Part shown: positions 1 to 10,912 of the stretch, piece by piece
Layout of the letters: every line of letters starts with the position of its first letter
How positions within the stretch are numbered: the first letter of the stretch is position 1
IMG/VR virus record: IMGVR_UViG_2667527592_000012
Direction: 5' to 3' (one strand)
Length of the DNA: 10,912 nt
DNA from: a virus
Lineage: Duplodnaviria; Heunggongvirae; Uroviricota; Caudoviricetes
Translations under genes and position numbers: made by a program
The notes under the pieces: generated by a model
Databases searched by the model: none
What the model was told of the DNA's origin: nothing
What the model saw: the letters and a program-made list of their open reading frames with translations, nothing else

Positions 1-234
1 CATGAGGAACAAATTGCCGCAGCCGAACTGGAAAAGCAGCAATTGATTAATCAGGTCAACGAATACATAAACAGTAAGCAATGGCCTGGTAAAGCGGCGA
101 TTGGTCGCCTGAAAGGTGAGGAACTGGCGCAATATAATTTGTGGCTGGATTATCTGGACGCACTGGAACTGGTCGATACTTCCGGTGCGCCAGATACTGA
201 ATGGCCTACGCCTCCGGCAGTTCAGGCCAGATGA
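1..234 (+). CDS. Tail fibre assembly protein (Tfa/gpG-like), C-terminal part; 5' end truncated by the window edge
   Basis: Frame 1 is open from position 1 to TGA at 232-234. The C-terminus ...LDYLDALELVDTSGAPDTEWPTPP resembles the C-terminus of the inverted tfa at 206..808 (...LDYIDAVTATDTSTAPDVIWPELP). The Met at 43 is internal. Confidence 0.75.
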   Translation, partial: HEEQIAAAELEKQQLINQVNEYINSKQWPGKAAIGRLKGEELAQYNLWLDYLDALELVDTSGAPDTEWPTPPAVQAR

Positions 235-808
235 CGTCCGGCGCGGTGCTGGTATCTGTTGCCGTCACCGCGTCAATGTAATCCAGCACAGCGTTAAGTC
301 GGGTGTTTTCTGTCTGCATCAGCTTCCGCCCGGCCTGCAATTTCAGTTGAATCAGACTAATGGAAGCCATTGCAGTATCAATCAGTGACTGACGCTGTGC
401 TTCTGCCGCGCCTACTGCGGCGCTATGCTGTGCCTCAGTATCTGTCACCCATTTCTCACCATCCCATTCATCGTATGGCGTTAACGGGGCGATAGTGGTT
501 GTATTTTCAGGATAATCACCCGGAGCTGTGATTTCTTTCGATTCTCCTGTTTCGGTGCTATAGATGATTTCACCGCGATGGTCTGGCACATATTCCCATG
601 AGTTAAAATCTGCAGAACGGCAGATTGCATAACCAGCTTTATGTGTAACTGGTGCATCTAAACAGGAACATGCCGGGATACCGACGCCAACCGCAAGATA
701 TTCAGTTGATGTGGAAATATATTCCCGCGTTTCACCATCATAATTATAAATGGTAATGTCTCCCGCTTTTATGGCAATGAGTTCGTTATTTAATACGGCT
801 TTATTCAT
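206..808 (-). CDS. Tail fibre assembly protein (Tfa), alternative copy inside the invertible segment
   Basis: 200-aa ORF. Start ATG (806-808, - strand) overlaps the stop of the upstream fibre cassette as ATGA. 3' end converges on and overlaps the + strand tfa by 29 bp, the U/U'-type arrangement of Mu G-segment-like switches. Confidence 0.8.
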   Translation of the reverse strand: MNKAVLNNELIAIKAGDITIYNYDGETREYISTSTEYLAVGVGIPACSCLDAPVTHKAGYAICRSADFNSWEYVPDHRGEIIYSTETGESKEITAPGDYPENTTTIAPLTPYDEWDGEKWVTDTEAQHSAAVGAAEAQRQSLIDTAMASISLIQLKLQAGRKLMQTENTRLNAVLDYIDAVTATDTSTAPDVIWPELPEA

Positions 809-1359
809 CAGGCAGCCCTCACGATATAATTAAAGGCAATGTTACGAGGACGGTTTTCGTTTGCAGTTGGAACAATTCTTGAAGCATCAAGGCCAATCAC
901 TTTTGGGTAAACAGCGCCGTCTGCTCTTTCTGTCACCATACTTCTGGTTAAGGAGAAATAACTATTGTTTGTAGAGGGACTCAAAGGCACCACTGCTCCC
1001 TTAAACGAGCTTGCTGCTTCCCATATTGAATAATTTTCGGTGTTTACAGTCTTGAACTCACCATAGATATTACGTATGGCATCGCCCTGAGCTGATAATA
1101 TTGCCCTCCCCGTATCCATACCACGTCCGTCATCCCAGCCACGAATAAACTCACCACGTAAATCAGGCAATTTATTTGTCGGGTAAGCCTTTGCCAGTTC
1201 CGGGTATTCTTCAGCAGAAAAAGCTGCTCCGTTGCATTTTAGCCAGCCTGTTGGCGGAGTGGCTGAGGGCCACGGAACAGGTACGCCAGCAGGCAATGCT
1301 GAGCCTTCTCCTAAACCAACGTTTATGAAAATGCAGAGATTACGGCTAACTGGCATCAT
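808..1359 (-). CDS. Alternative tail fibre C-terminal (receptor-binding) cassette, silent in this orientation; probably has no start codon of its own and is fused to the constant fibre N-terminus after inversion
   Basis: Translation contains ...PVPWPSATPPTGWLKCNGAAFSAEEYPELAKAYPTNKLPDLRGEFIRGWDDGRG..., which I recognise as the conserved start of enterobacterial phage tail fibre variable regions. The crossover site lies within its 5' end. The Met at 1359 in the ORF track is probably incidental. Confidence 0.7.
   Translation of the reverse strand: MMPVSRNLCIFINVGLGEGSALPAGVPVPWPSATPPTGWLKCNGAAFSAEEYPELAKAYPTNKLPDLRGEFIRGWDDGRGMDTGRAILSAQGDAIRNIYGEFKTVNTENYSIWEAASSFKGAVVPLSPSTNNSYFSLTRSMVTERADGAVYPKVIGLDASRIVPTANENRPRNIAFNYIVRAA
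1306..1331. other. Hin/Gin/Cin-family inversion crossover site (12-2-12 imperfect dyad, central AA)
   Basis: TTCTCCTAAACC-AA-CGTTTATGAAAA: the left half TTCTCCTAAACC and the reverse complement of the right half TTTTCATAAACG agree at 9 of 12 positions. It resembles hix/gix sites as I recall them. It sits just upstream of the invertase gene and at the constant/variable junction of the fibre cassette. Confidence 0.65.
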
Positions 1360-1380
1360 CTCCGGTTTTTATTCAGAGGG

Positions 1381-1953
1381 ATGATCATGCTTATTGGCTA
1401 TGTACGCGTGTCAACAAATGACCAGAACACCGATTTGCAACGTAATGCACTGAACTGCGCGGGATGTGAGCGGATTTTTGAGGATAAAATCAGTGGCACC
1501 AAGTCCGACAGACCAGGGCTGAAAAAGCTGCTCAGGACACTATCGGCAGGTGACACACTGGTTGTCTGGAAGCTGGACAGGTTGGGGCGCAGTATGCGGC
1601 ATCTTGTTACTCTGATAGAAGAGTTGCGCCAGCGCGGCGTGAATTTCAGAAGTCTGACTGACAGTATTGATACCAGTACCCCAATGGGCCGTTTCTTTTT
1701 TCATGTCATGGGTGCCCTGGCTGAAATGGAACGCGAACTGATAGTTGAACGTACCAGGGCAGGGCTGGCTGCAGCTCGTGCTAAAGGCAGAGTAGGTGGA
1801 CGCCGTCCTAAGTTGACTACCGAACAGTGGGCACAGATTGGACGTTTACTCGAGGCCGGAGAATCAAGACAGCGTATTGCACTGATTTTTGATGTGGGCG
1901 TTTCTACCATTTATAGAAAATTTCCGGCGAATGAGAACAATGAATCGCCCTGA
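1381..1953 (+). CDS. Serine recombinase, DNA invertase (Gin/Hin/Pin/Cin family)
   Basis: 190-aa ORF; N-terminus MLIGYVRVSTNDQNTDLQRNAL... with the catalytic Ser in YVRVSTNDQ, and C-terminal HTH. Closely resembles Gin/Pin as recalled. The true start may be ATG 1387, which has GAGGG 8 nt upstream. Confidence 0.93.
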   Translation: MIMLIGYVRVSTNDQNTDLQRNALNCAGCERIFEDKISGTKSDRPGLKKLLRTLSAGDTLVVWKLDRLGRSMRHLVTLIEELRQRGVNFRSLTDSIDTSTPMGRFFFHVMGALAEMERELIVERTRAGLAAARAKGRVGGRRPKLTTEQWAQIGRLLEAGESRQRIALIFDVGVSTIYRKFPANENNESP

Positions 1954-2001
1954 GTCAGCATTATTTTGATTTTTCCTGTAAGCGGACAAATACCGTTATT
2001 T

Positions 2002-2019
2002 TGTGTGAATAACGACACA
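2002..2019 (+). promoter_or_regulatory. TGT-N12-ACA element, candidate Ogr/Delta activator site of the late promoter for the FI operon
   Basis: TGTGTGAATAACGACACA lies about 80 bp upstream of the FI start. P2-type late promoters carry TGT-N12-ACA centred near -55 (recalled). Transcription start and -10 not resolved. Confidence 0.55.
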
Positions 2020-2095
2020 ACTGCGCTTAGCTGTTTGTCAGGCACAATCACTTCAACATAGGGCGAAGCCTAATCCAATCAGGAGGTTCGCCACT

Positions 2096-3268
2096 ATGGC
2101 TCAGGATTACCACCACGGAGTGCGCGTTGTTGAAGTCAACGAAGGCACCCGATCCATTACCACGGTGAGCACCGCCATCGTGGGTATGGTCTGCACGGGC
2201 GATGATGCCGATGCAAAAATGTTTCCTCTTAATAAACCCGTGCTGATCACTGATGTGCTGACTGCCAGCGGTAAAGCGGGTGAGTCCGGCACGCTGGCCC
2301 GTTCGCTGGATGCCATCGCTGACCAGGCAAAACCCGTGACCGTTGTTGTGCGTGTGCCGCAGGGGGAAACGGAAGAAGAAACCACGACCAATATCATCGG
2401 CGCAGTGACTGCTGAAGGTAAAAAAACAGGCATGAAAGCTCTGTTATCTGCCCAGTCACAGCTCGGCGTTAAACCGCGCATTCTCGGCGTGCCAGGCCAC
2501 GATAACAAAGCCGTTGCGACTGAGTTGCTGAGAGTGGCGCAAAGCCTGCGTGGGTTTGCTTACCTGTCAGCGTATGGCTGCAAGACAGTGCAGGAGGCGA
2601 TCACTTACCGCGAAAACTTCAGCCAGCGCGAAGGGATGCTGATCTGGCCTGACTTTACTGGCTGGGACACGGTGCTGAATGCCGAAGCAACGGCATATGC
2701 CACCGCTCGTGCGCTCGGTCTGCGCGCCAAAATTGATGAGCAGACCGGGTGGCACAAAAGCCTGTCCAACGTGGGCGTGAACGGTGTCACCGGAATTTCT
2801 GCTGATGTGTTCTGGGATCTGCAGGACCCGGCAACCGATGCGGGACTGCTTAACCAGAACGACGTCACCACGCTTGTGCGCAAGGATGGTTTCCGCTTCT
2901 GGGGTTCCCGCTGTCTGAGCGATGATCCGCTTTTTGCCTTCGAAAACTACACCCGCACGGCGCAGGTGCTGACGGACACAATGGCAGAAGCGCACATGTG
3001 GGCGGTGGACAAACCGCTGAACCCGTCGCTGGCGCGCGACATTATCGAGGGCATCCGCGCCAAAATGCGCAGCCTGGTCAGTCAGGGCTATCTCATTGGT
3101 GGTGATTGCTGGCTGGACGAGTCAGTGAACGACAAAGACACGCTGAAAGCCGGAAAACTCACCATCGACTATGACTACACGCCAGTGCCACCACTTGAAA
3201 ATCTGATGCTGCGCCAGCGCATCACCGATCAGTACCTGGTGAATTTCGCCAGCCAGGTCAGCGCGTAA
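2096..3268 (+). CDS. FI: Tail sheath protein (P2 gpFI family)
   Basis: 390 aa; AGGAGG 9 nt upstream of ATG. Sequence [19 protein letters not shown]...[21 protein letters not shown] matches P2 FI as recalled. Confidence 0.95.
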
Positions 3269-3277
3269 GGGGATAAC

Positions 3278-3793
3278 ATGGCTTTACCACGCAAATTAAA
3301 ACATCTGAACCTGTTTAACGACGGGAACAACTGGCAGGGGATCGTAGAGTCGCTGACGCTGCCGAAATTCACCCGCAAATATGAGAAGTATCGCGGCGGT
3401 GGAATGCCTGGTGCAGTTGATGTGGATCTGGGGCTTGATGACAGTGCGCTGGACACAGAATTTTCCATTGGTGGTACTGAACTGCTGCTGTTTAAGCAGA
3501 TGGGCAAAGCCACGGTGGATGGCATCCAGTTGCGCTTTACCGGCTCTATCCAGCGTGACGATACCGGAGAAGTGCAGGCCGTGGAGCTTGTGGTGCGTGG
3601 ACGTCACAAAGAAGTGGATTCCGGCGAGTGGAAGACGGGCGAAAGCAACACCACCAAAGTGACCAGTACCAACAGCTACGCGAAGCTGACCATCAATGGT
3701 GAGGTGCTCTATGAAGTGGACCTTATCAACATGGTGGAAATTGTGGACGGTATGGACCTGATGGAAGCGCACCGCAACGCCCTCGGCCTCTGA
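3278..3793 (+). CDS. FII: Tail tube protein (P2 gpFII family)
   Basis: 171 aa; MALPRKLKHLNLFNDG...; starts 10 nt after the FI stop; size and N-terminus match P2 FII as recalled. Confidence 0.93.
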   Translation: MALPRKLKHLNLFNDGNNWQGIVESLTLPKFTRKYEKYRGGGMPGAVDVDLGLDDSALDTEFSIGGTELLLFKQMGKATVDGIQLRFTGSIQRDDTGEVQAVELVVRGRHKEVDSGEWKTGESNTTKVTSTNSYAKLTINGEVLYEVDLINMVEIVDGMDLMEAHRNALGL

Positions 3794-3804
3794 TATATCT
3801 GAAC

Positions 3805-3822
3805 GGCGCGGGATACCGCGCC
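3805..3822 (+). other. GC-rich hairpin (7-bp stem GGCGCGG/CCGCGCC, loop GATA) between FII and E; no following T-tract
   Basis: Perfect 7-bp inverted repeat read directly from the sequence. Possible attenuator or RNA-stability element. Confidence 0.35.
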
Positions 3823-3847
3823 AGAACCCAATTTACAGGACAGCAAA

Positions 3848-4150
3848 ATGAGTGATAAGCAGACTGAAAAGACCATTCAACTGGATACCCCCATCAAGCG
3901 CGGTAAAACAGAAATCACCGAAATTGTGCTGCGTAAACCGCAGTCCGGTGCGCTGCGCGGTACACGCCTGCAGGCCATTATGGATATGGATGTGAACGCG
4001 ATGATGACCGTGATCCCCCGCATCTCCAGTCCGGCACTGACTGCACAGGAAATTGCAGAGATGGACCCGGCAGATCTCACTGCCATGTCGGTTGAGGTTG
4101 TCACTTTTTTGTTGAAGAAGTCGGTGCTTGCCGGTTTACCGACAGCCTGA
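3848..4150 (+). CDS. E: Tail assembly chaperone gpE (zero-frame product)
   Basis: 100-aa ORF directly upstream of the tape measure gene; contains the slippery heptamer near its 3' end. Confidence 0.9.
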   Translation: MSDKQTEKTIQLDTPIKRGKTEITEIVLRKPQSGALRGTRLQAIMDMDVNAMMTVIPRISSPALTAQEIAEMDPADLTAMSVEVVTFLLKKSVLAGLPTA

Positions 4151-4284
4151 CGGTTGACGATCTGGTGGCAGATATCGCCACCATTTTTCACTGGCCGCCA
4201 TCCGTTACTGACGTTATGCCGCTGACCGAAGTGCTGGAATGGCGGTATAAAGCGATTCAGAGAAGCGGGGCCAACGATGAGTGA
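3848..4284 (+). CDS. Tail assembly chaperone E+E' (-1 frameshift fusion product)
   Basis: Shifting -1 at 4105-4111 gives ...FFVEEVGACRFTDSLTVDDLVADIATIFHWPPSVTDVMPLTEVLEWRYKAIQRSGANDE*, resembling the P2 E' extension as recalled. It overlaps the T start (4277) by 8 nt. Confidence 0.8.
4105..4111 (+). other. Programmed -1 ribosomal frameshift site (slippery heptamer TTTTTTG)
   Basis: T6G within the last codons of E (..ACT TTT TTG..). The -1 frame is open from here to TGA at 4282-4284. Confidence 0.8.
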
Positions 4285-7200
4285 TAATAACCTGCGGCTG
4301 CAGGTCATTCTTAATGCGGTTGACAAACTCACCCGCCCATTCCGTGCTGCACAGGCCAGTTCGAAAGAGCTGGCTGGCGCAATCAGAAACTCCCGTGACG
4401 CATTAAAGCAACTCAATCAGGCGGGTAACAGCCTGGAAAAATTTCGCAAGCTGCAGGCCGATAACAAGAAGTTAGGCGACAGGCTGAACTATGCCAGACA
4501 GAAGGCTAATTTGCTTAGCTCTGAGCTGGAGTCGATGGAACAACCATCACAACGGCACCTTGTGGCTTTAGGTCGGCAAACGCTGGCAGTCCAACGTCTG
4601 GAAGAACAACAAAAATATTTGCAGAAGCAAACGGCGCTTGTGCGTGCAGAACTGTACCGGGCGGGAATTTCTGCGAAAGATGATGCGGGAGCAACTGCCC
4701 GTTTAGCCCGTGAAACATCACGTTATAACCAGGAACTGTTGAAACAGGAGGCGCGGCTGAAGCGACTGGGGGAAGCTCAGCGCAGGATGAATGCAGCGCG
4801 TGCCAGTTATGCCCGTTCGCTGGAGGTGCGCGATCGCATCGCTGGAGCCGGAGCCACCACCACGGCTGCAGGGCTGGCAGTGGGGACGCCAGTGATGGCG
4901 GCAGTAAAAAGCTATACCAGCATGGAAGATGCCATGAAAGGTGTGGCAAAGCAGGTCAATGGTCTGCGTGACGATAATGGCAACCGCACTGCACGTTTTT
5001 ATGAAATGCAGGATGCCATCAAGGCTGCCAGCGAACAGTTGCCGATGGAAAACGGTGCGGTGGACTTCGCTGCACTGGTTGAAGGTGGTGCGCGCATGAA
5101 CGTCGCAAACCCTGACGACAGCTGGGAAGACCAGAAACGTGACCTGCTGGCCTTCGCCAGTACGGCAGCAAAGGCGGCAACAGCCTTTGAGCTGCCAGCG
5201 GATGAACTGTCAGAAAGTCTGGGGAAAATCGCCCAGCTCTACAAAATACCTACCCGCAATATTGAACAGCTCGGCGATGCGCTGAACTATCTGGATGATA
5301 ACGCCATGTCGAAAGGGGCGGACATCATTGATGTCATGCAACGTCTGGGCGGTGTGGCTGACCGTCTGGATTATCGTAAAGCGGCGGCACTGGGTTCCAC
5401 CTTTCTGACACTGGGCGCTGCGCCGGAGGTTGCAGCCAGTGCAGCAAACGCGATGGTGCGTGAATTGTCCATTGCCACCATGCAAAGCAAGAGTTTCTTT
5501 GAAGGGATGAATCTGCTGAAACTCAATCCTGAAGTGATTGAAAAGCAGATGACGAAGGATGCGATGGGAACTATCCAGCGTGTGCTGGAGAAGGTGAATG
5601 CTCTGCCGCAGGACAAGCGTCTGTCTGCCATGACCATGTTGTTTGGTAAAGAGTTTGGTGATGACGCGGCGAAACTGGCAAACAACCTTCCGGAACTGCA
5701 GCGCCAGCTAAAACTGACAGCGGGCAATGATGCGCTCGGTTCCATGCAGAAAGAATCCGACATCAACAAAGACTCACTTTCTGCTCAGTGGTTGCTGGTC
5801 AAAACCGGAGCGCAGAACACCTTCAGCAGCCTGGGCGAAACGCTGCGCCAGCCGCTGATGGATATTCTGTACACGGTGAAAAGCATCACGGGGGCGTTGC
5901 GCCGCTGGGTGGAAGCTAACCCGGAACTGACAGGCACACTGATGAAAGTAGCGGCTGTTGTGGCTGCGGTTACCGTAGGCCTCGGCACCTTAGCGGTGGC
6001 GCTGGCTGCAGTGCTGGGGCCGCTGGCAGTCATCCGTCTGGGATTCTCTGTGCTGGGTATCAAAACGTTACCTTCTGTTACGGCAGCAGTAACACGAACC
6101 AGCAGCGCGTTGTCCTGGTTAGCTGGCGCTCCACTGGCACTGCTGCGACGCGGGCTTGCTTCATCGGGCAACGCAGCGGGTTTACTTACTGCTCCGTTGT
6201 CGTCTTTGCGTCGCACGGCATCACTGACGGGGAATGTCCTGAAAACTGTAGCAGGTGCGCCGGTTGCACTGTTCCGGTCTGGATTATCCGGTTTACGTGC
6301 TGTTGCTGTGATGTTTATGAATCCTTTGGCGGTACTGCGCGGTGGACTGGCCGCCGCAGGCACGGTGCTGCGAGTACTGGCATCTGGTCCACTGGCGATG
6401 CTGCGCGTTGCCCTGTATGCCGTATCTGGTCTGTTAGGTGCTCTGCTCAGTCCGATAGGTCTTGTGGTTACTGCGCTGGCGGACGTGGCGCTGGTTGTCT
6501 GGAAATACTGGCAACCCATCACCGCATTTCTCGGTGGCGTGGTGGAAGGATTCAAAGCGGCGGCAGGACCCATCAGTGCCGCATTCGAACCGCTTAAGCC
6601 TGTGTTCCAGTGGATTGGCGACAAAGTGCAGGCGCTGTGGGGCTGGTTTACTGATTTGCTGACGCCCGTTAAGTCGACTTCTGCCGAACTGCAGAGCGCA
6701 GCGGCAATGGGGCGACGATTCGGGGAGGCACTGGCGGAAGGGCTGAATATGGTCATGCATCCGCTGGACTCCCTGAAATCCGGCGTATCCTGGTTGCTGG
6801 AAAAACTCGGCATTGTCAGTAAAGAGGCCGCAAAGGCGAAACTGCCGGAAAGCGTGACGCGTCAGCAACCTGCGACGGTGAATGCAGACGGTAAAGTGAT
6901 GATGCCATCGGGTGGTTTTCCGTCATGGGGATATGGCTTTGCGGGGATGTATGACAGCGGCGGCTATATCCCGCGCGGGCAGTTTGGCATCGTCGGTGAA
7001 AACGGGCCGGAAATTGTTAACGGCCCGGCAAATGTGACCAGCCGGAGAAATACAGCTTCACTGGCTGCCGTTGTTGCTGGAATGATGGGCGTTGCTGCCG
7101 CGCCTGCAGAGCTTCCACCGTTGCATCCTTTGGCACTTCCCTCGAAAGGCGGCGAAGCGATGGTGAGTCGTGCAGCCACTGTGCCGCCCGTTCAACGGAT

Positions 7201-7354
7201 TGAGGCACCGACGCAGATCATCATTCAGACGCAGCCAGGACAAAGTGCGCAGGATATTGCGCGGGAGGTGGCCCGCCAGCTTGATGAACGTGAACGCAGG
7301 CTGAAGGCAAAAGCCAGGAGTAACTACAGCGATCAGGGGGGATACGACGCATGA
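4277..7354 (+). CDS. T: Tail tape measure protein (P2 gpT family)
   Basis: 1025 aa; coiled-coil-rich N-terminal third, central hydrophobic repeat region, Gly-rich C-terminus; located between E/E' and U. Confidence 0.93.
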   Translation: MSDNNLRLQVILNAVDKLTRPFRAAQASSKELAGAIRNSRDALKQLNQAGNSLEKFRKLQADNKKLGDRLNYARQKANLLSSELESMEQPSQRHLVALGRQTLAVQRLEEQQKYLQKQTALVRAELYRAGISAKDDAGATARLARETSRYNQELLKQEARLKRLGEAQRRMNAARASYARSLEVRDRIAGAGATTTAAGLAVGTPVMAAVKSYTSMEDAMKGVAKQVNGLRDDNGNRTARFYEMQDAIKAASEQLPMENGAVDFAALVEGGARMNVANPDDSWEDQKRDLLAFASTAAKAATAFELPADELSESLGKIAQLYKIPTRNIEQLGDALNYLDDNAMSKGADIIDVMQRLGGVADRLDYRKAAALGSTFLTLGAAPEVAASAANAMVRELSIATMQSKSFFEGMNLLKLNPEVIEKQMTKDAMGTIQRVLEKVNALPQDKRLSAMTMLFGKEFGDDAAKLANNLPELQRQLKLTAGNDALGSMQKESDINKDSLSAQWLLVKTGAQNTFSSLGETLRQPLMDILYTVKSITGALRRWVEANPELTGTLMKVAAVVAAVTVGLGTLAVALAAVLGPLAVIRLGFSVLGIKTLPSVTAAVTRTSSALSWLAGAPLALLRRGLASSGNAAGLLTAPLSSLRRTASLTGNVLKTVAGAPVALFRSGLSGLRAVAVMFMNPLAVLRGGLAAAGTVLRVLASGPLAMLRVALYAVSGLLGALLSPIGLVVTALADVALVVWKYWQPITAFLGGVVEGFKAAAGPISAAFEPLKPVFQWIGDKVQALWGWFTDLLTPVKSTSAELQSAAAMGRRFGEALAEGLNMVMHPLDSLKSGVSWLLEKLGIVSKEAAKAKLPESVTRQQPATVNADGKVMMPSGGFPSWGYGFAGMYDSGGYIPRGQFGIVGENGPEIVNGPANVTSRRNTASLAAVVAGMMGVAAAPAELPPLHPLALPSKGGEAMVSRAATVPPVQRIEAPTQIIIQTQPGQSAQDIAREVARQLDERERRLKAKARSNYSDQGGYDA

Positions 7355-7836
7355 TGATGGTGCTGGGATTGTACGTGTTTATGCTGCGCACTGTGCCGTA
7401 TCAGGAACTGCAGTATCAACGCAGCTGGCGACATGCGGCAAACAGCCGGGTCAACCGACGTCCGTCCATGCAGTTTCTGGGACCGGACAACGACATGCTG
7501 ACGCTTTCTGGTGTTCTTATGCCGGAGATAACGGGCGGCAGGCTGTCGTTGCTGGCTCTGGAGCAGATGGCAGAACAGGGAAAAGCATGGCCCCTGATTG
7601 AAGGCAGCGGCACGATTTACGGCATGTATGTGATTGAGGGACTGAATCAGACTAAAACGGAGTTTTTCCGCGATGGTATGCCGCGCCGGATTGAGTTCAC
7701 CCTGTCGCTCAAACGGGTGGATGAATCCCTGTCCGATATGTTCGGTGATCTCAGTGCGCAGCTGAATAATTTGCAGGATACGGCAACGTCTGCCTTAAGC
7801 GATATCAGTAAAACGGTGGGAGGGCTGCTGTCGTGA
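7351..7836 (+). CDS. U: Tail protein gpU (tail completion/terminator family)
   Basis: 161 aa; start overlaps the T stop (ATGATGATG; true start may be 7354 or 7357); position and size as in P2. Confidence 0.88.
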   Translation: MMMVLGLYVFMLRTVPYQELQYQRSWRHAANSRVNRRPSMQFLGPDNDMLTLSGVLMPEITGGRLSLLALEQMAEQGKAWPLIEGSGTIYGMYVIEGLNQTKTEFFRDGMPRRIEFTLSLKRVDESLSDMFGDLSAQLNNLQDTATSALSDISKTVGGLLS

Positions 7837-8933
7837 ATTTCAGCTCTGAACTGCTTAACAAAGGCAACAAAACTCCCGCATTCAGCATCAGTATTGAGGG
7901 AAAGGATATCACCACTGTGCTGGATAACCGCCTGATGAGTCTGACGCTGACGGACAATCGGGGCTTTGAAGCAGACCAGCTTGATCTGGAACTGGACGAC
8001 GCCGACGGAAAAATCGTGCTGCCGCGCCGTGGTGCGGTCATCACGCTGGCGCTGGGCTGGAAGGGGCAGCCGCTTTTCCCTAAAGGGGCATTCACAGTGG
8101 ACGAGATTGAACACACTGGCGCACCGGACCGCCTGACTATCCGGGCGCGAAGTGCTGATTTTCGGGAAACGCTGAATACCCGCCGTGAAAAATCGTGGCA
8201 TAAGACCACCGTCGGGGAAGTGGTGAAGGAAATAGCCGCGCGGCACAAGCTGAAGATGGCACTGGGTAAAGACCTGTCGGATAAGCCCGTGGAGCATATA
8301 GACCAGACTAATGAGAGTGACGGCAGTTTTCTGATGCGGCTGGCGCGACAGTACGGTGCCATCGCGTCGGTGAAAAATGGCAATCTGTTATTCATCCGGC
8401 AGGGGCAGGGCAAAAGCGCCACTGGTAAACCTCTGTCAGTGATAACTATCACACGCAAGGACGGCGACAGTCACCGATTTACCCTGGCAGATCGCGGAGC
8501 CTACGCGGGCGTAATTGCCAGCTGGTTGCATACCCGCGAACCTGCGAAGAAAGAAAGCACCACGGTGAAGCGTAAGCGCAGAACTAAGAAGCAGAAGAAA
8601 GAGCCAGAAGCGAAGCAGGGCGATTACCTGGTGGGTACGGATGAAAACGTGCTGGTACTTAATCGCACTTATGCCAACCGGAGCAACGCCGAACGAGCGG
8701 CGAAAATGCAGTGGGAACGCCTGCAACGCGGCGTTGCGTCATTTTCTCTACAACTGGCAGAAGGGCGGGCAGATCTCTACACGGAAATGCCTGTGAAGGT
8801 CAGTGGTTTTAAACAGCCGATAGATGATGCGGAATGGATCATTACGACTCTGACACATACCGTCAGCCCGGATAACGGTTTTACAACCAGTATTGAACTT
8901 GAAGTGAAAATTAATGATCTTGAAATGGAATAA
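7833..8933 (+). CDS. D: Tail protein gpD (phage late control D family)
   Basis: 366 aa; GTG start overlapping the U stop (GTGA); last gene of the late tail operon, immediately before ogr, as in P2. Confidence 0.88.
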   Translation: MNFSSELLNKGNKTPAFSISIEGKDITTVLDNRLMSLTLTDNRGFEADQLDLELDDADGKIVLPRRGAVITLALGWKGQPLFPKGAFTVDEIEHTGAPDRLTIRARSADFRETLNTRREKSWHKTTVGEVVKEIAARHKLKMALGKDLSDKPVEHIDQTNESDGSFLMRLARQYGAIASVKNGNLLFIRQGQGKSATGKPLSVITITRKDGDSHRFTLADRGAYAGVIASWLHTREPAKKESTTVKRKRRTKKQKKEPEAKQGDYLVGTDENVLVLNRTYANRSNAERAAKMQWERLQRGVASFSLQLAEGRADLYTEMPVKVSGFKQPIDDAEWIITTLTHTVSPDNGFTTSIELEVKINDLEME

Positions 8934-9001
8934 ATGGTTCTCAATATTGATATTTTGTGTATCATTGCATTGATTCTGATAGCAAAGGTAGGGATCTGTA
9001 T

Positions 9002-9220
9002 ATGATGAATTGTCCAAAGTGTGGTCATGCGGCGCACACAAGGAGCAGTTTTCAAGTAACGGAAAGCACCAAAGAGCGTTACTGCCAGTGCCAAAATATT
9101 AACTGCGGGAGCACTTTTGTTACCCATGAAACAGTGGTCCGGTTTATTGTGACACCCGCACTGATTGCTACTGCTCCTCCACATCCATTGCCAGGTGGTC
9201 AGGGGCATATGAATTTTTGA
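9002..9220 (+). CDS. ogr: Late transcription activator Ogr (Ogr/Delta zinc-finger family)
   Basis: 72 aa from ATG 9002: MMNCPKCGHAAHTRSSFQVTESTKERYCQCQNINCGSTFVTHETVVRFIVTP... with the C-x2-C...C-x4-C zinc finger; same length as P2 Ogr (recalled). AGGG 8 nt upstream. Confidence 0.9.
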   Translation: MMNCPKCGHAAHTRSSFQVTESTKERYCQCQNINCGSTFVTHETVVRFIVTPALIATAPPHPLPGGQGHMNF

Positions 9221-9227
9221 GAAAGAG

Positions 9228-9251
9228 AACCTGCTACGGCAGGTTTTTATT
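9228..9251. terminator. Intrinsic terminator after ogr, shared with the convergent cargo ORF
   Basis: 7-bp stem AACCTGC/GCAGGTT with 4-nt loop TACG followed by TTTATT on the + strand; overlaps the stop codon of the - strand ORF. Confidence 0.6.
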
Positions 9252-9729
9252 CATCTGGGATCTCACCCGTTTCAAGAAAATGTATAAAGCCAGGCTCATC
9301 TATGATGATTGTGCCTTTCATCCTGGCTGCCGATACTTTTGATGGGCCTGCATTGTAACCGCAACAGAGCATCTGAAGGCTTTGGGTTACAGAGGTTCTT
9401 ACCGTTAATCCTTGTTCATTCGCCTTATCAACCAATCTTTCTTTATCTGCTTTCTTAAATCCGGTGAAACACACATCGAATGTATTTTTTTTCGGACCAG
9501 ACTGCTTAGTGAGATGTGAGTAGTTTTCGGGGAGGAATGACGCGCATTCCTGAATGGCTTGTTCTGGTGAATCGTACTGTTTAAGAATGCGGTCTTTTCG
9601 GAAGGTTTTTATTCGATCGGTGTTCTTACAAATGCCCTGTATATGATTTTCGCTATAACTGATGCTCTGTATAGAGTGAACACCGATACGACCATTTGCA
9701 TTGATGTAAACAAAGTGAAGTTCTTCCAT
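9247..9729 (-). CDS. Hypothetical cargo protein, 160 aa; N-terminal WYL-like motif and C-terminal BRCT-like region (both inferred by eye)
   Basis: Intact ORF with AGAGG 6 nt upstream of ATG; visibly AT-rich relative to the flanking late genes. C-terminus FDVCFTGFKKADKERLVDKANEQGLTVRTSVTQSLQMLCCGYNAGPSKVSAARMKGTIIIDEPGFIHFL aligns by eye with the LigA BRCT domain; N-terminus ends in RIKTFRKDRI, reminiscent of the WYL-domain R-x-FR-x-DRI signature. Confidence 0.75.
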   Translation of the reverse strand: MEELHFVYINANGRIGVHSIQSISYSENHIQGICKNTDRIKTFRKDRILKQYDSPEQAIQECASFLPENYSHLTKQSGPKKNTFDVCFTGFKKADKERLVDKANEQGLTVRTSVTQSLQMLCCGYNAGPSKVSAARMKGTIIIDEPGFIHFLETGEIPDE

Positions 9730-9755
9730 GTGAAACCTCTTTGCATGATTTCAAG

Positions 9756-9794
9756 ATGGCGACAGGCAAGATGGACGCAAAAGTCTGTCGCCAT
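9756..9794. repeat. Perfect 10-bp inverted repeat (ATGGCGACAG ... CTGTCGCCAT, 19-bp spacer) in the cargo-gene upstream region
   Basis: Read directly from the sequence; an 8-bp direct repeat CAAGATGG occurs at 9752-9759 and 9767-9774. Confidence 0.5.
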
Positions 9795-9810
9795 TTTGCC
9801 GCCACTACCA

Positions 9811-9844
9811 AAGAAAAAGGGGCTACGCTTTCACGTAACCCCTT
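9811..9844 (-). terminator. Intrinsic terminator of ssrA, encoded on the prophage side of the junction
   Basis: On the - strand, 8 nt after the tmRNA 3' end: stem AAGGGG...CCCCTT with an inner 4-bp extension and 6-nt loop, followed by TTTTTCTT. Confidence 0.65.
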
Positions 9845-9852
9845 GATTTATT

Positions 9853-10215
9853 TGATGGAGCTGGCGGGAGTTGAACCCGCGTCCGAAATTCCTACATCCT
9901 CGGTACTACATGCTTAGTCAGTCTTTACATTCGCTTGCCAGCTGCGGACGGACACGCCACTAACAAACTAGCCTGATTAAGTTTTAACGCTTCAACCCCA
10001 GGCAGGGCTTCCACGCGATCTCTTTTGGGTTTGACCTCTCTTGATCCCCGTCCTAAGAGCGGAGGCTAGGGAGAGAGGGCTCTAAGCAGGTTATTAAGCT
10101 GCTAAAGCGTAGTTTTCGTCGTTTGCGACTATTTTTTGCGGCTTTTTACGAGGCCAACCGCCCCTCGGCATGCACCTTGGGTTTCGCAAATCCCGTCGAA
10201 TCCAGAATCAGCCCC
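9853..10215 (-). ncRNA. ssrA: tmRNA (SsrA), 363 nt
   Basis: The reverse complement begins GGGGCTGATTCTGGATTCGACGGG and matches the E. coli tmRNA sequence as I recall it through ...CCCGCCAGCTCCA; the terminal triplet reads TCA rather than CCA. Confidence 0.95.
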
Positions 10216-10229
10216 AATGTGTAACGGTA

Positions 10230-10262
10230 AGTATACCAGATTTATGAGCAGCATGACTAGCC
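10230..10262 (-). promoter_or_regulatory. Candidate ssrA promoter (-10 TATACT, weak -35)
   Basis: On the - strand TATACT ends 14 nt upstream of the mature tmRNA 5' end, consistent with a short processed leader; the -35 is poorly matched. Confidence 0.35.
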
Positions 10263-10429
10263 CAAAAGGCGTTATCATCCTGGAATTAGCGCCTGCATAG
10301 TATGATTTTTTTTCGATTAAGCAATGGGATGGCTACATCTGTGTCAGATTTGACAGTCGATAAGATGTTCATTCGCGCCACCGGATAGGGAGGCGCGGTG
10401 AGGATTTGATTAGTATCGCTTATATAGGT

Positions 10430-10912
10430 TTAACGGTGGGCATTTTTCATGATACGCGCTTTATCCACCTGCCATTCGCGTTCTTTGATATCTGAACGTT
10501 TATCGTGCTGTTTCTTACCTTTGGCGACGCCGATTTTCACTTTGCACCAGGCATTTTTCCAGTACAGGGAGAGCGCCACTACGGTATAGCCTTCTCGATT
10601 GACGCGACCGTACAATGAGTCCAGTTCGCGCTGGTTGAGAAGTAACTTGCGGGTACGGGTAGGATCGCACACCACATGCGTGGAGGCCACAGCCATTGGC
10701 GTGATGTTAGCGCCAAACAGAAATGCCTCTCCGTCGCGCAGAAGGACATAGCTGTCGCTGATATTGGCTTTTCCTGCGCGCAGGGATTTAACCTCCCAGC
10801 CTTGCAGGGCAAGTCCCGCTTCGAACTCTTCTTCGATAAAGTATTCGTGACGGGCGCGCTTGTTAAGCGCGATGGTCGCTGAACCAGGTTTATGTGCTTT
10901 TTTCTTCGTCAT
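10430..10912 (-). CDS. smpB: SsrA-binding protein SmpB (complete)
   Basis: 160 aa, [51 protein letters not shown]...; recognised as E. coli SmpB, directly upstream of ssrA on the same strand. The start codon is the last three bases of the window. Confidence 0.97.

Follow-up and report, generated by a model that had tools for sequence, protein, structure and literature searches.

The window, a stretch of 10,912 nucleotides comprising bases 1-10912 of contig JXWE01000036.1 (assembly GCA_000948835.1), very probably carries the invertase-proximal part of an invertible tail-fibre switch of a P2-like (Peduovirus-type) prophage, which is integrated into Escherichia coli at ssrA. Inversion at the core of a 26-bp crossover site was observed by comparison with a near-identical prophage from a second assembly, designated L010, in which the segment has the opposite orientation. 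The contig of the window itself opens within the invertible segment, and the partner crossover site is absent from the window because the draft contig begins there.

Downstream of the fibre genes, the open reading frames of the late block follow the P2 order (FI sheath, FII tube, E/E', T tape measure, U, D, Ogr), and Pfam matches to sheath, Phage_tube, Phage_P2_GpE, Phage_TAC_7, PhageMin_Tail, Phage_P2_GpU, Phage_GPD and Ogr_Delta were found in this block. Relatives of the prophage carry P2-family annotation, and one relative, Salmonella phage MET_P1_103_31, is classified as Peduovirus. Phage P2 and the window prophage have in common the backbone V W J I H G, a variable slot, and then FI FII E T U D ogr. 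In P2 itself the H-G pair is fixed and accompanied by the Z/fun gene, and P2 is not known to carry an invertase or an alternative cassette. The variable slot is the known Z/fun hotspot, at which invertases are frequent (10.1101/2024.10.15.618418). An earlier reading of the sequence alone had put the module where P2 has Z/fun, with the fibre genes on one side and FI on the other, and this placement agrees with that work.

Anatomy of the invertible segment

All of the features described in the sequence-only reading were located where it had placed them (Table 1). In the window orientation, the gp53-like tip and tfa form the expressed pair while the Collar tip and tfa' are silent. The tfa gene is truncated by the contig end; 77 of 78 residues of its product match the C-terminal end of the 146-aa Tfa from E. 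coli Z142-6, and the complete 146-aa gene is present in L010. The product of tfa', a homologue of which is named 'tfaE' by RefSeq in several relatives, is identical at 195 of 201 positions to the expressed copy of MET_P1_103_31. These two genes had been described as divergent with overlapping 3' ends. The overlap is real, with 29 nt shared by the two 3' ends, but the genes are convergent.

Table 1. Features of the tail-fibre switch in the window (coordinates are window positions)
Feature	Position	Strand	Evidence or remark
Invertible segment, right-hand 1,317 bp of 1,883 bp	1..1317	.	Remaining ~566 bp beyond the left end of the contig
tfa, 3' 77 codons, chaperone of the gp53-like fibre tip	1..234	+	Pfam Caudo_TAP, E 1e-20
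tfa', 200-aa tail-fibre assembly chaperone, pairs with the Collar tip	206..808	-	Caudo_TAP, E 2.5e-30; phrog_105, E 7.4e-97
Fibre cassette ORF	808..1359	-	Collar, E 1.2e-15; phrog_523 'tail collar fiber protein', E 2.6e-79
Silent alternative fibre C-terminus (Sv'), 169 codons, GLGEG to stop	808..1317	-	Collar domain
Invertase-proximal crossover site	1306..1331	+	Inner half TTCTCCTAAACC (1306-1317), core AA (1318-1319), outer half CGTTTATGAAAA (1320-1331)
DNA invertase, 188 aa, small serine recombinase, Gin/Cin/Hin/Pin group	1387..1953	+	Resolvase, E 2.3e-53; HTH_7, E 1.5e-15
Candidate Fis-dependent recombinational enhancer, in 5' end of invertase gene	1405..1476	+	Assigned from position

The silent fibre C-terminal cassette proposed for the minus strand was likewise found intact, with a Collar domain. 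In an ungapped alignment, 162 of its 169 residues are identical to the C-terminus of the H protein that MET_P1_103_31 expresses, and in L010 the cassette forms the expressed C-terminus of the 519-aa H protein. Sv' has no start codon of its own, and its reading frame is open through the crossover site, which encodes ...GLGEG.... The ATG at 1359, taken as the start of the listed 183-aa ORF, is located past the crossover site and is no real start; the cassette proper starts at the site.

Crossover sites

To score candidate crossover sites, Mu gix, P1 cix and three related prophage sites were combined into a half-site matrix that did not include the site of the window. The 26-bp dyad of 12-2-12 structure and central AA that had been noted at 1306-1331 scored 30.7 bits with this matrix, far more than expected by chance. 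By comparison, the next best 26-mer in the window scored 6.9 bits and the best of 100 shuffles 17.3 bits. The two half-sites of the dyad agree with each other at 9 of 12 positions. That the window contains only this one site, as had been claimed, was borne out by both approaches: neither a search allowing up to three mismatches nor the half-site matrix returned a second copy. A partner site inside the window is thus ruled out, and the partner lies off the contig.

The sequence-only reading had placed the partner site and the expressed fibre gene to the left of the window and had called for a search for an inverted copy there. In L010, the inverted copy (TTCTCGCATACC-TT-GGTTTAGGAGAA) was found within the fibre gene H (L010 5145-5170), at a position that projects to ~567 nt upstream of window base 1. 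The same inverted partner site is present in two collinear relatives, L002 and L006. Its core dinucleotide TT is complementary to the AA of the window site, as inversion requires. Exactly two high-scoring sites were detected in the 23 kb of L010 (33.0 and 30.7 bits; third-ranking site, 6.9 bits), and L002 and L006 also have exactly two each.

The opposite orientation in a near-identical prophage

The isogenic pair formed by the window and L010 was identified by an exact-protein look-up with the tape measure protein. L010 is the same prophage, found on a 746-kb contig of GCA_052188135.1 at the same ssrA/smpB locus, with the segment inverted. Positions 1305-10912 of the window align to the plus strand of L010 at 99.979% identity, while positions 1-1322 align to the minus strand (L010 6475-5154) at 99.924%; homology between the two isomers changes strand at the crossover site. 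Flipping L010 5159-7041 in silico at both core dinucleotides reproduced all 10,912 nt of the window except for 2 mismatches, located at 7424 and 9855, with none in 1-1953. The two near-identical prophages therefore differ by a precise inversion at the core. Because the isomers are separated by only 2 substitutions in 10.9 kb, the flip is very recent. Judging from these two near-identical assemblies, the window prophage would be expected to switch within a single culture as well.

The proposal that inversion exchanges the fibre C-terminus along with its chaperone was borne out by the reading frames of the two isomers. H is uninterrupted in both, and both C-termini fuse in frame to the constant part of the protein. 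As deposited, L010 encodes an H protein of 519 aa with Phage_tail_fib and Collar domains, whereas in the window orientation, obtained by in-silico flipping, H is 468 aa long and ends in the gp53-like tip. One tip is assigned to Collar and the other to Gp53-like_C, two unrelated Pfam families, and the receptor specificity they confer is therefore likely to be different.

Both orientations among other genomes

Both orientations are also found outside this pair and are common in complete E. coli genomes. The segment of E. coli Z142-6 has the orientation opposite to that of Salmonella phage MET_P1_103_31 and E. coli BS74R-D, and an alignment of all four junctions showed that they recombine exactly at the AA core. 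Of 5,426 complete E. coli genomes, 122 have the silent cassette joined through the site to the invertase, and 53 have the same cassette joined through the site to the constant part of the fibre gene (Sc). The invertase was still present in both of the flipped examples that were inspected. An in-silico flipped Z142-6 construct was collinear in 47 complete E. coli genomes, with a best match of 100% coverage and 97.0% identity, such that no isogenic flipped copy was found with this query among complete E. coli genomes. For the window itself, ~160 complete E. coli genomes hold at least 80% of its length as one collinear match, the best being ~96% identical.

The invertase and its possible regulation

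The gene adjacent to the site encodes an intact invertase of the Gin/Hin type, as the sequence-only reading had it, with both the Resolvase and HTH_7 domains. The protein matches phrog_125 'DNA invertase' (E 9.8e-101), and its residues 1-183 align to the Gin crystal-structure chains 3uj3 and 4m6f (E 1.8e-92). It keeps the VRVSTNDQ motif and Ser9, is identical to P1 Cin at 144 of 182 positions (79%) and to Mu Gin at 138 of 181 (76%), and is full-length, with 187 of 189 positions identical to copies from other genomes. The crossover site lies 55 bp upstream of the gene, which points away from the segment as does Mu gin.

A candidate for the Fis-dependent recombinational enhancer lies in the 5' end of the invertase gene. 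This stretch matches the annotated P1 cin enhancer (NC_005856 31678-31749) at 56 of 72 positions (78%) without gaps, and it is also protein-coding. At the DNA level, the first 90 nt of the invertase gene constitute one of the two best-conserved 90-nt blocks in the gene, and they encode the catalytic N-terminus. Since the candidate enhancer falls within the coding region for this conserved part of the protein, its conservation is not specific evidence for enhancer function.

A simple scan of 1332-1386 gave no convincing sigma-70 promoter for the invertase. Across 1-2200, a promoter and terminator scan returned 5 promoter hits versus 3.1 +/- 1.7 in shuffled sequences and 4 terminator hits versus 2.1 +/- 1.6, neither of which is above expectation. 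The invertase gene is co-directional with the late fibre operon and lies downstream of it. Given this position and the lack of a recognisable promoter of its own, read-through across the invertible segment might be the main source of invertase expression. The rate of switching would in that case vary with prophage induction and with the orientation of the moment, and this could account for biased equilibria, of which the 93:7 ratio in enteropathogenic E. coli (EPEC) is an example. The enzyme might also work in trans on segments of other prophages that share its cell. We regard both ideas as unlikely.

A probable two-state switch and its alternatives

The arrangement is best described as a two-state invertible tail-fibre switch of the Din family (Gin/Cin/Pin/Hin-type). 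The fibre gene H has a constant 5' part, Sc, outside the segment, and a 26-bp site inside the H frame encodes ...YLGLGE.... A second 26-bp site, in inverted orientation, lies just upstream of the invertase gene with a 1,883-bp segment between the sites, and the segment comprises two convergent cassettes, in each of which a fibre C-terminus is paired with a Tfa chaperone of its own. In the proposed mechanism, the 188-aa serine invertase would bind both sites, cut at the 2-bp core TT/AA and exchange strands, probably aided by Fis at an enhancer within the 5' end of the invertase gene, in the manner of Gin, Cin and Hin. The orientation would then decide which pair, the gp53-like tip with tfa or the Collar tip with tfa', is joined in frame to Sc and transcribed as part of the late operon. 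A lysogen population would thereby release phage with either of two receptor-binding tips, which amounts to bet-hedging on host range. The dependence on Fis and the enhancer, the catalytic mechanism and the difference in receptor specificity are what we infer by analogy with the family. What was observed is the layout of the switch with all of its parts intact, the partner site, the in-frame fusion in both states and the precise inversion at the core between the two near-identical prophages.

It is very unlikely that the window instead contains a frozen relic, that is, a once-active switch that no longer inverts in the window strain because the invertase is silent or the left site damaged, such that the difference from L010 records a single past event. 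The absence of a clear invertase promoter in the simple scan would fit this view, and the left site of the source strain is out of view since the contig starts at window base 1. Decay also does occur in the family, as the invertase of the relative CP019275.1 is annotated as frameshifted. However, the invertase of the window is full-length with Ser9 in place and nearly identical to copies in other genomes, the silent cassette and its chaperone are intact, the 2 substitutions between the isomers make the flip very recent, and a truncated homologous prophage in EPEC still flips measurably. A decayed remnant was rejected: cassette, chaperone and invertase are all full-length and 96-99% identical to expressed or widely conserved copies. 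The points on which the sequence-only reading had made its proposal depend came out in its favour, with a partner site that exists, both orientations seen in assemblies, and an intact invertase and silent cassette.

An assembly artefact, in which the opposite orientation would result from contigs wrongly joined across a short inverted repeat, is highly improbable. The region is evidently hard to assemble, and draft contigs with this prophage often end at or near the site: two of them, L012 and L013, start at window positions 1321 and 1290, and the contig of the window starts inside the segment. These ends could be read as a sign of mixed orientations in the reads, but they are only suggestive because the first part of the Collar cassette repeats in other prophage fibres, which by itself could break assemblies. 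On the other hand, the common inverted repeat is only ~18 nt long (window 1305-1322), below the usual assembly k-mers, a wrong join would still require reads for both junctions, and both orientations are found in many finished complete genomes and phage genomes. Lastly, the left part of the segment is outside the window, and shufflons with three repeats exist in P2 prophages (PMC4272514), so more than one partner site and three or more fibre tips could be imagined, as in the second EPEC P2 prophage or p15B Min. The segment holds just two cassettes, however, and the count of exactly two high-scoring sites in each of L010, L002 and L006 led us to reject a shufflon with more than two, leaving this last alternative with next to no probability.

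Comparison with known switches

Invertible tail-fibre segments of the Gin/Cin/Pin type have been textbook examples since Mu and P1. The description of the module as a switch in the style of the Mu G segment or the P1 C segment holds: a constant fibre N-terminus lies outside the segment and two convergent pairs of cassette and chaperone lie inside. The likeness to Mu and Gin extends to the order of the elements (Sc, [Sv U U' S'v], then an invertase pointing outward), to the convergence of the chaperone genes in the middle of the segment, to the location of the crossover site within the fibre reading frame, to the 12-2-12 structure of the sites, with a close match of the window site to Mu gix, and to the full-length match of the invertase to the Gin structures. 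Unlike the window prophage, Mu has ~3 kb between its annotated G-segment boundaries, compared with 1.9 kb here, and a GA/TC rather than an AA/TT core. The cassettes of the window also differ from those of Mu in being unrelated lambda/HK97-stf-like and gp53-like tips in a P2-like myovirus.

Cin of P1 is the closest classical invertase, and its cin enhancer is the one matched by the candidate stretch described above. P1 also has the same AA/TT core, and the inner half of its cixR site (TTCTCTTAAACC) agrees with the inner half of the window site at 11 of 12 positions. In contrast to the window prophage, in which the invertase follows the segment and reads outward, cin precedes the segment and reads toward it, cixL overlaps the 3' end of cin, and the segment is 4.2 kb long. 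The P segment of e14 and its invertase Pin in E. coli K-12 are similar in that a Din-family invertase flips cassettes of the stf/tfa type, and the e14 repeat AAACCTTGGTTTGGGAGAAGG matches the type of Sc-side site found here; unlike the window prophage, e14 is a defective lambdoid element and not P2-like.

Another counterpart is a segment in the P2-like prophage remnant of EPEC E2348/69 (NC_011601 2977580-2979467), for which Goldberg et al. (2014) reported that both orientations coexist in clonal cultures, with 93 +/- 4% in the forward orientation (PMC4272514). The same module lies between the segment and FI, with the same two cassette types, and the EPEC segment is 1,888 bp long. Its DNA is 93-94% identical to window positions 1-856 and 1112-1319, and its invertase-proximal site (TTCTCCCAAACCAACGTTTAAGAAAA) differs from the window site at 2 of 26 positions. 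It differs in that its invertase is only 80% identical to that of the window, its locus is near yfiB and not ssrA, and the prophage is truncated, with an integrase fragment abutting the segment and no constant part of H.

Consequences for annotation and host range

The switch of the window is an already known and common arrangement, and such segments in P2-like E. coli prophages have been measured before (PMC4272514). As a discovery it carries little weight, since this kind of system has long been known and has been noted in surveys of the Z/fun hotspot (10.1101/2024.10.15.618418). Its consequences are mainly practical. The 183-aa ORF at 808-1359, called as a 'phage tail protein', is no gene; it is a silent cassette and is read only once the segment has inverted. 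Draft contigs are prone to break in or at such segments, and differences in orientation between otherwise identical prophages should not be scored as structural divergence. Likewise, predictions of host range for P2-like phages or tailocins should consider both tips.

An inversion isomer with both crossover sites

Searching for exact copies of the window's 1,025-aa tape measure protein retrieved the source contig and a 746-kb contig of GCA_052188135.1 (L010), where this prophage occupies the same ssrA/smpB locus. Window 1305-10912 aligns to the plus strand of L010 (99.979%) and window 1-1322 to the minus strand (99.924%). One L010 site lies within the fibre gene H (TTCTCGCATACC-TT-GGTTTAGGAGAA, 5145-5170) and the second precedes the start codon of the invertase by 55 bp (TTCTCCTAAACC-AA-CGTTTATGAAAA, 7030-7055). 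Once L010 5159-7041 (1,883 bp) is reverse-complemented, the entire window is recovered but for 2 mismatches (7424 and 9855), both outside 1-1953; the window is therefore an exact inversion isomer of L010. Mismatch 9855 falls at the ssrA 3' end.

A sequence-only reading of this DNA had placed a partner crossover site left of the window. The inverted site in H of L010 bears this out and projects the missing copy ~567 nt left of window base 1. The same reading proposed that inversion exchanges the fibre C-terminus and its chaperone, in agreement with the two in-frame forms of H: L010 encodes 519 aa ending in a Collar tip, and the window's orientation 468 aa ending in a gp53-like tip.

The 26-mer at 1306-1331 of the window, also TTCTCCTAAACC-AA-CGTTTATGAAAA, has half-sites that agree at 9 of 12 positions. 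A half-site weight matrix built from Mu gixL/gixR, P1 cixL/cixR and three related prophage sites, with the window's own site left out, scored it at 30.7 bits (runner-up in the window, 6.9; best of 100 shuffles, 17.3), making it the only crossover site in the window, as had been claimed. Its inner half-site is identical to the P1 cixR inner half at 11 of 12 positions, and the AA core is common to both.

The Collar-domain frame passes through this site, which codes ...FINVGLGEG.... Its ATG at 1359 falls outside the invertible segment, and the real element is a 169-codon cassette without a start of its own. Both this silent cassette (162/169) and its paired chaperone tfa' (195/201) are nearly identical to expressed copies in Salmonella phage MET_P1_103_31. 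The coordinates of the sequence-only reading were all correct, but the two tfa genes it called divergent are convergent, their 3' ends overlapping over 206-234. A weak terminator-like hairpin and T run (AACTGGCATCATCTCCGGTT TTTATTCAGA, 1348-1367, +) occupies part of the interval from the crossover site to the start of the invertase gene, in a scan whose overall match counts were not above shuffle expectation.

The Collar cassette and tfa' (window 154-1327) are also 92.5% identical to stf-tfa of siphovirus HK97 (19706-20864), the only genes annotated under the match in that record. The matching stretch takes in the core and most of the crossover site, and site-like DNA common to both could help unrelated phages exchange cassettes.

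The invertase

The 188-aa invertase has Resolvase and HTH_7 domains, and residues 1-183 align to Mu Gin crystal-structure chains (3uj3, 4m6f; E 1.8e-92). Identity is 79% with P1 Cin, 76% with Mu Gin and 80% with the enzyme of an EPEC P2 remnant; copies in other E. coli prophages match it at 187/189. Nothing suggests the inactivating mutations that had been raised as a possibility: the Gin alignment is full-length, and VRVSTNDQ with the catalytic Ser9 is kept. Window 1405-1476, which also codes the catalytic N-terminus, matches the annotated P1 cin enhancer at 78% identity and is a candidate recombinational enhancer. A scan revealed no clear sigma-70 promoter for the gene.

Both orientations in other genomes

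E. coli Z142-6 has the window's orientation, while in MET_P1_103_31 and E. coli BS74R-D and 5735 the Collar cassette is joined to the constant 5' part of H (Sc) and the other cassette lies beside the invertase. When the four junctions are aligned, the change of partner falls exactly on the AA core. The silent cassette-site-invertase junction occurs in 122 of 5,426 complete E. coli genomes and the same cassette joined to Sc in 53; an in-silico flipped Z142-6 construct is collinear in 47 genomes. At least 80% of the window is present in ~160 complete E. coli genomes (best ~96% identical), and RefSeq already annotates its switch genes.

The gene order resembles that of Mu, with the invertase downstream of the segment and reading away from it, and P1 supplies the closest enzyme and site (Cin and cix). 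The EPEC E2348/69 locus has the same module adjoining the invertase and FI; its segment shares 93-94% identity with window 1-856 and 1112-1319, and two positions distinguish its invertase-proximal site, TTCTCCCAAACCAACGTTTAAGAAAA, from that of the window. Paired-end sequencing and PCR showed invertible segments of two P2-like prophages in both orientations within clonal E2348/69 cultures, one segment (1,888 bp, NC_011601 2977580-2979467) being 93 +/- 4% forward (Goldberg et al. 2014, PMC4272514). That prophage is a truncated one in which a partial integrase gene adjoins the segment directly (locus positions 11244-13508; NC_011601 2977243-2979507); it is without the fibre constant part, yet inverts measurably, and the score of its left site is lower (22.0 bits vs ~31). 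A DNA invertase is 'often' present at the P2 Z/fun hotspot, with inversion of adjacent genes (2024 preprint, 10.1101/2024.10.15.618418).

Draft assemblies seem to break systematically at the invertible segment. Contig JXWE01000036.1 (GCA_000948835.1), whose first 10,912 nt are the window, starts within tfa and hence inside the segment, and two other draft contigs with this prophage start at window 1321 and 1290, at or at most 16 nt from the crossover site. Possible causes are a mixture of orientations among the reads or repetition of fibre sequences in other prophages. CP019275.1, deposited as the 37,446-bp circular 'plasmid p13P477T-2', matches the window out to base 10912 and hence includes ssrA and smpB host DNA; its annotation gives the invertase as frameshifted. 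The record may represent a prophage region that was misassembled or mislabelled.

The prophage right arm

The window comprises a P2-like prophage right arm and the host junction. Since ssrA and smpB lie directly past the prophage end, the prophage is integrated at the ssrA 3' end.

Features of the window
Feature	Coordinates	Strand	Remarks
tfa chaperone gene, 3' end	1-234	+	
tfa', second chaperone gene	206-808	-	
Open frame with fibre Collar domain	808-1359	-	
Resolvase/invertase gene	1387-1953	+	
FI tail sheath	2096-3268	+	
FII tail tube	3278-3793	+	
E and E'	3848-4150, 4165-4284	+	
T tape measure	4277-7354	+	
U	7351-7836	+	
D	7833-8933	+	
ogr	9002-9220	+	
160-aa ORF, function not assigned	9247-9729	-	
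ssrA (tmRNA)	9853-10215	-	Rfam 294 bits; tag ANDENYALAA
smpB	10430-10912	-	

A TGT-N12-ACA dyad (TGTGTGAATAACGACACA, 2002-2019, +) precedes the FI start codon by ~75 nt. This is the form of the Ogr-dependent P2 late-promoter element; it would place the beginning of the FI operon shortly after the invertase gene. For ogr, a mechanical ORF list starts at GTG 8957 (87 aa) and relatives' gene calls at ATG 9002 (72 aa). A 143-aa ORF antisense to D and ogr (8777-9208, -), annotated as a gene in some assemblies, is without a family match and probably spurious.

The 160-aa ORF between ogr and the ssrA junction is kept in relatives as hypothetical protein WP_000391794.1. It is without a Pfam match and matches phrog_2561 (labelled 'DNA ligase') over its full length (E 2.2e-77), with weaker matches to the C-terminal ends of NAD-dependent ligase families and a weak PADLOC match to the PDC-S48 C-terminus (E 1.8e-07). 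It looks like a small stand-alone ligase-C-terminal-domain-like protein carried as prophage cargo.

A two-state tail-fibre switch

The element has two inverted 26-bp sites with an intact Din-family invertase, and two intact convergent tip-chaperone pairs that are fused in frame in both states; between near-identical prophages the exchange is exact at the core. By analogy with Gin, Cin and Hin, the serine recombinase would make 2-bp staggered cuts at the core, and its subunits would rotate within a Fis/enhancer-dependent invertasome.

That the module is a frozen relic is unlikely given that its parts are intact and the isomers are only 2 substitutions apart. Nor is the difference in orientation likely to be an assembly artefact, as the common repeat measures ~18 nt and finished genomes show both states. 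In the near-identical L010, a search of 23 kb turned up no third crossover site, which excludes a multi-site shufflon there. The observation made from the sequence is confirmed and its interpretation as a Mu G/P1 C style switch supported; the system is of a known kind, in an element that is common in public genomes.
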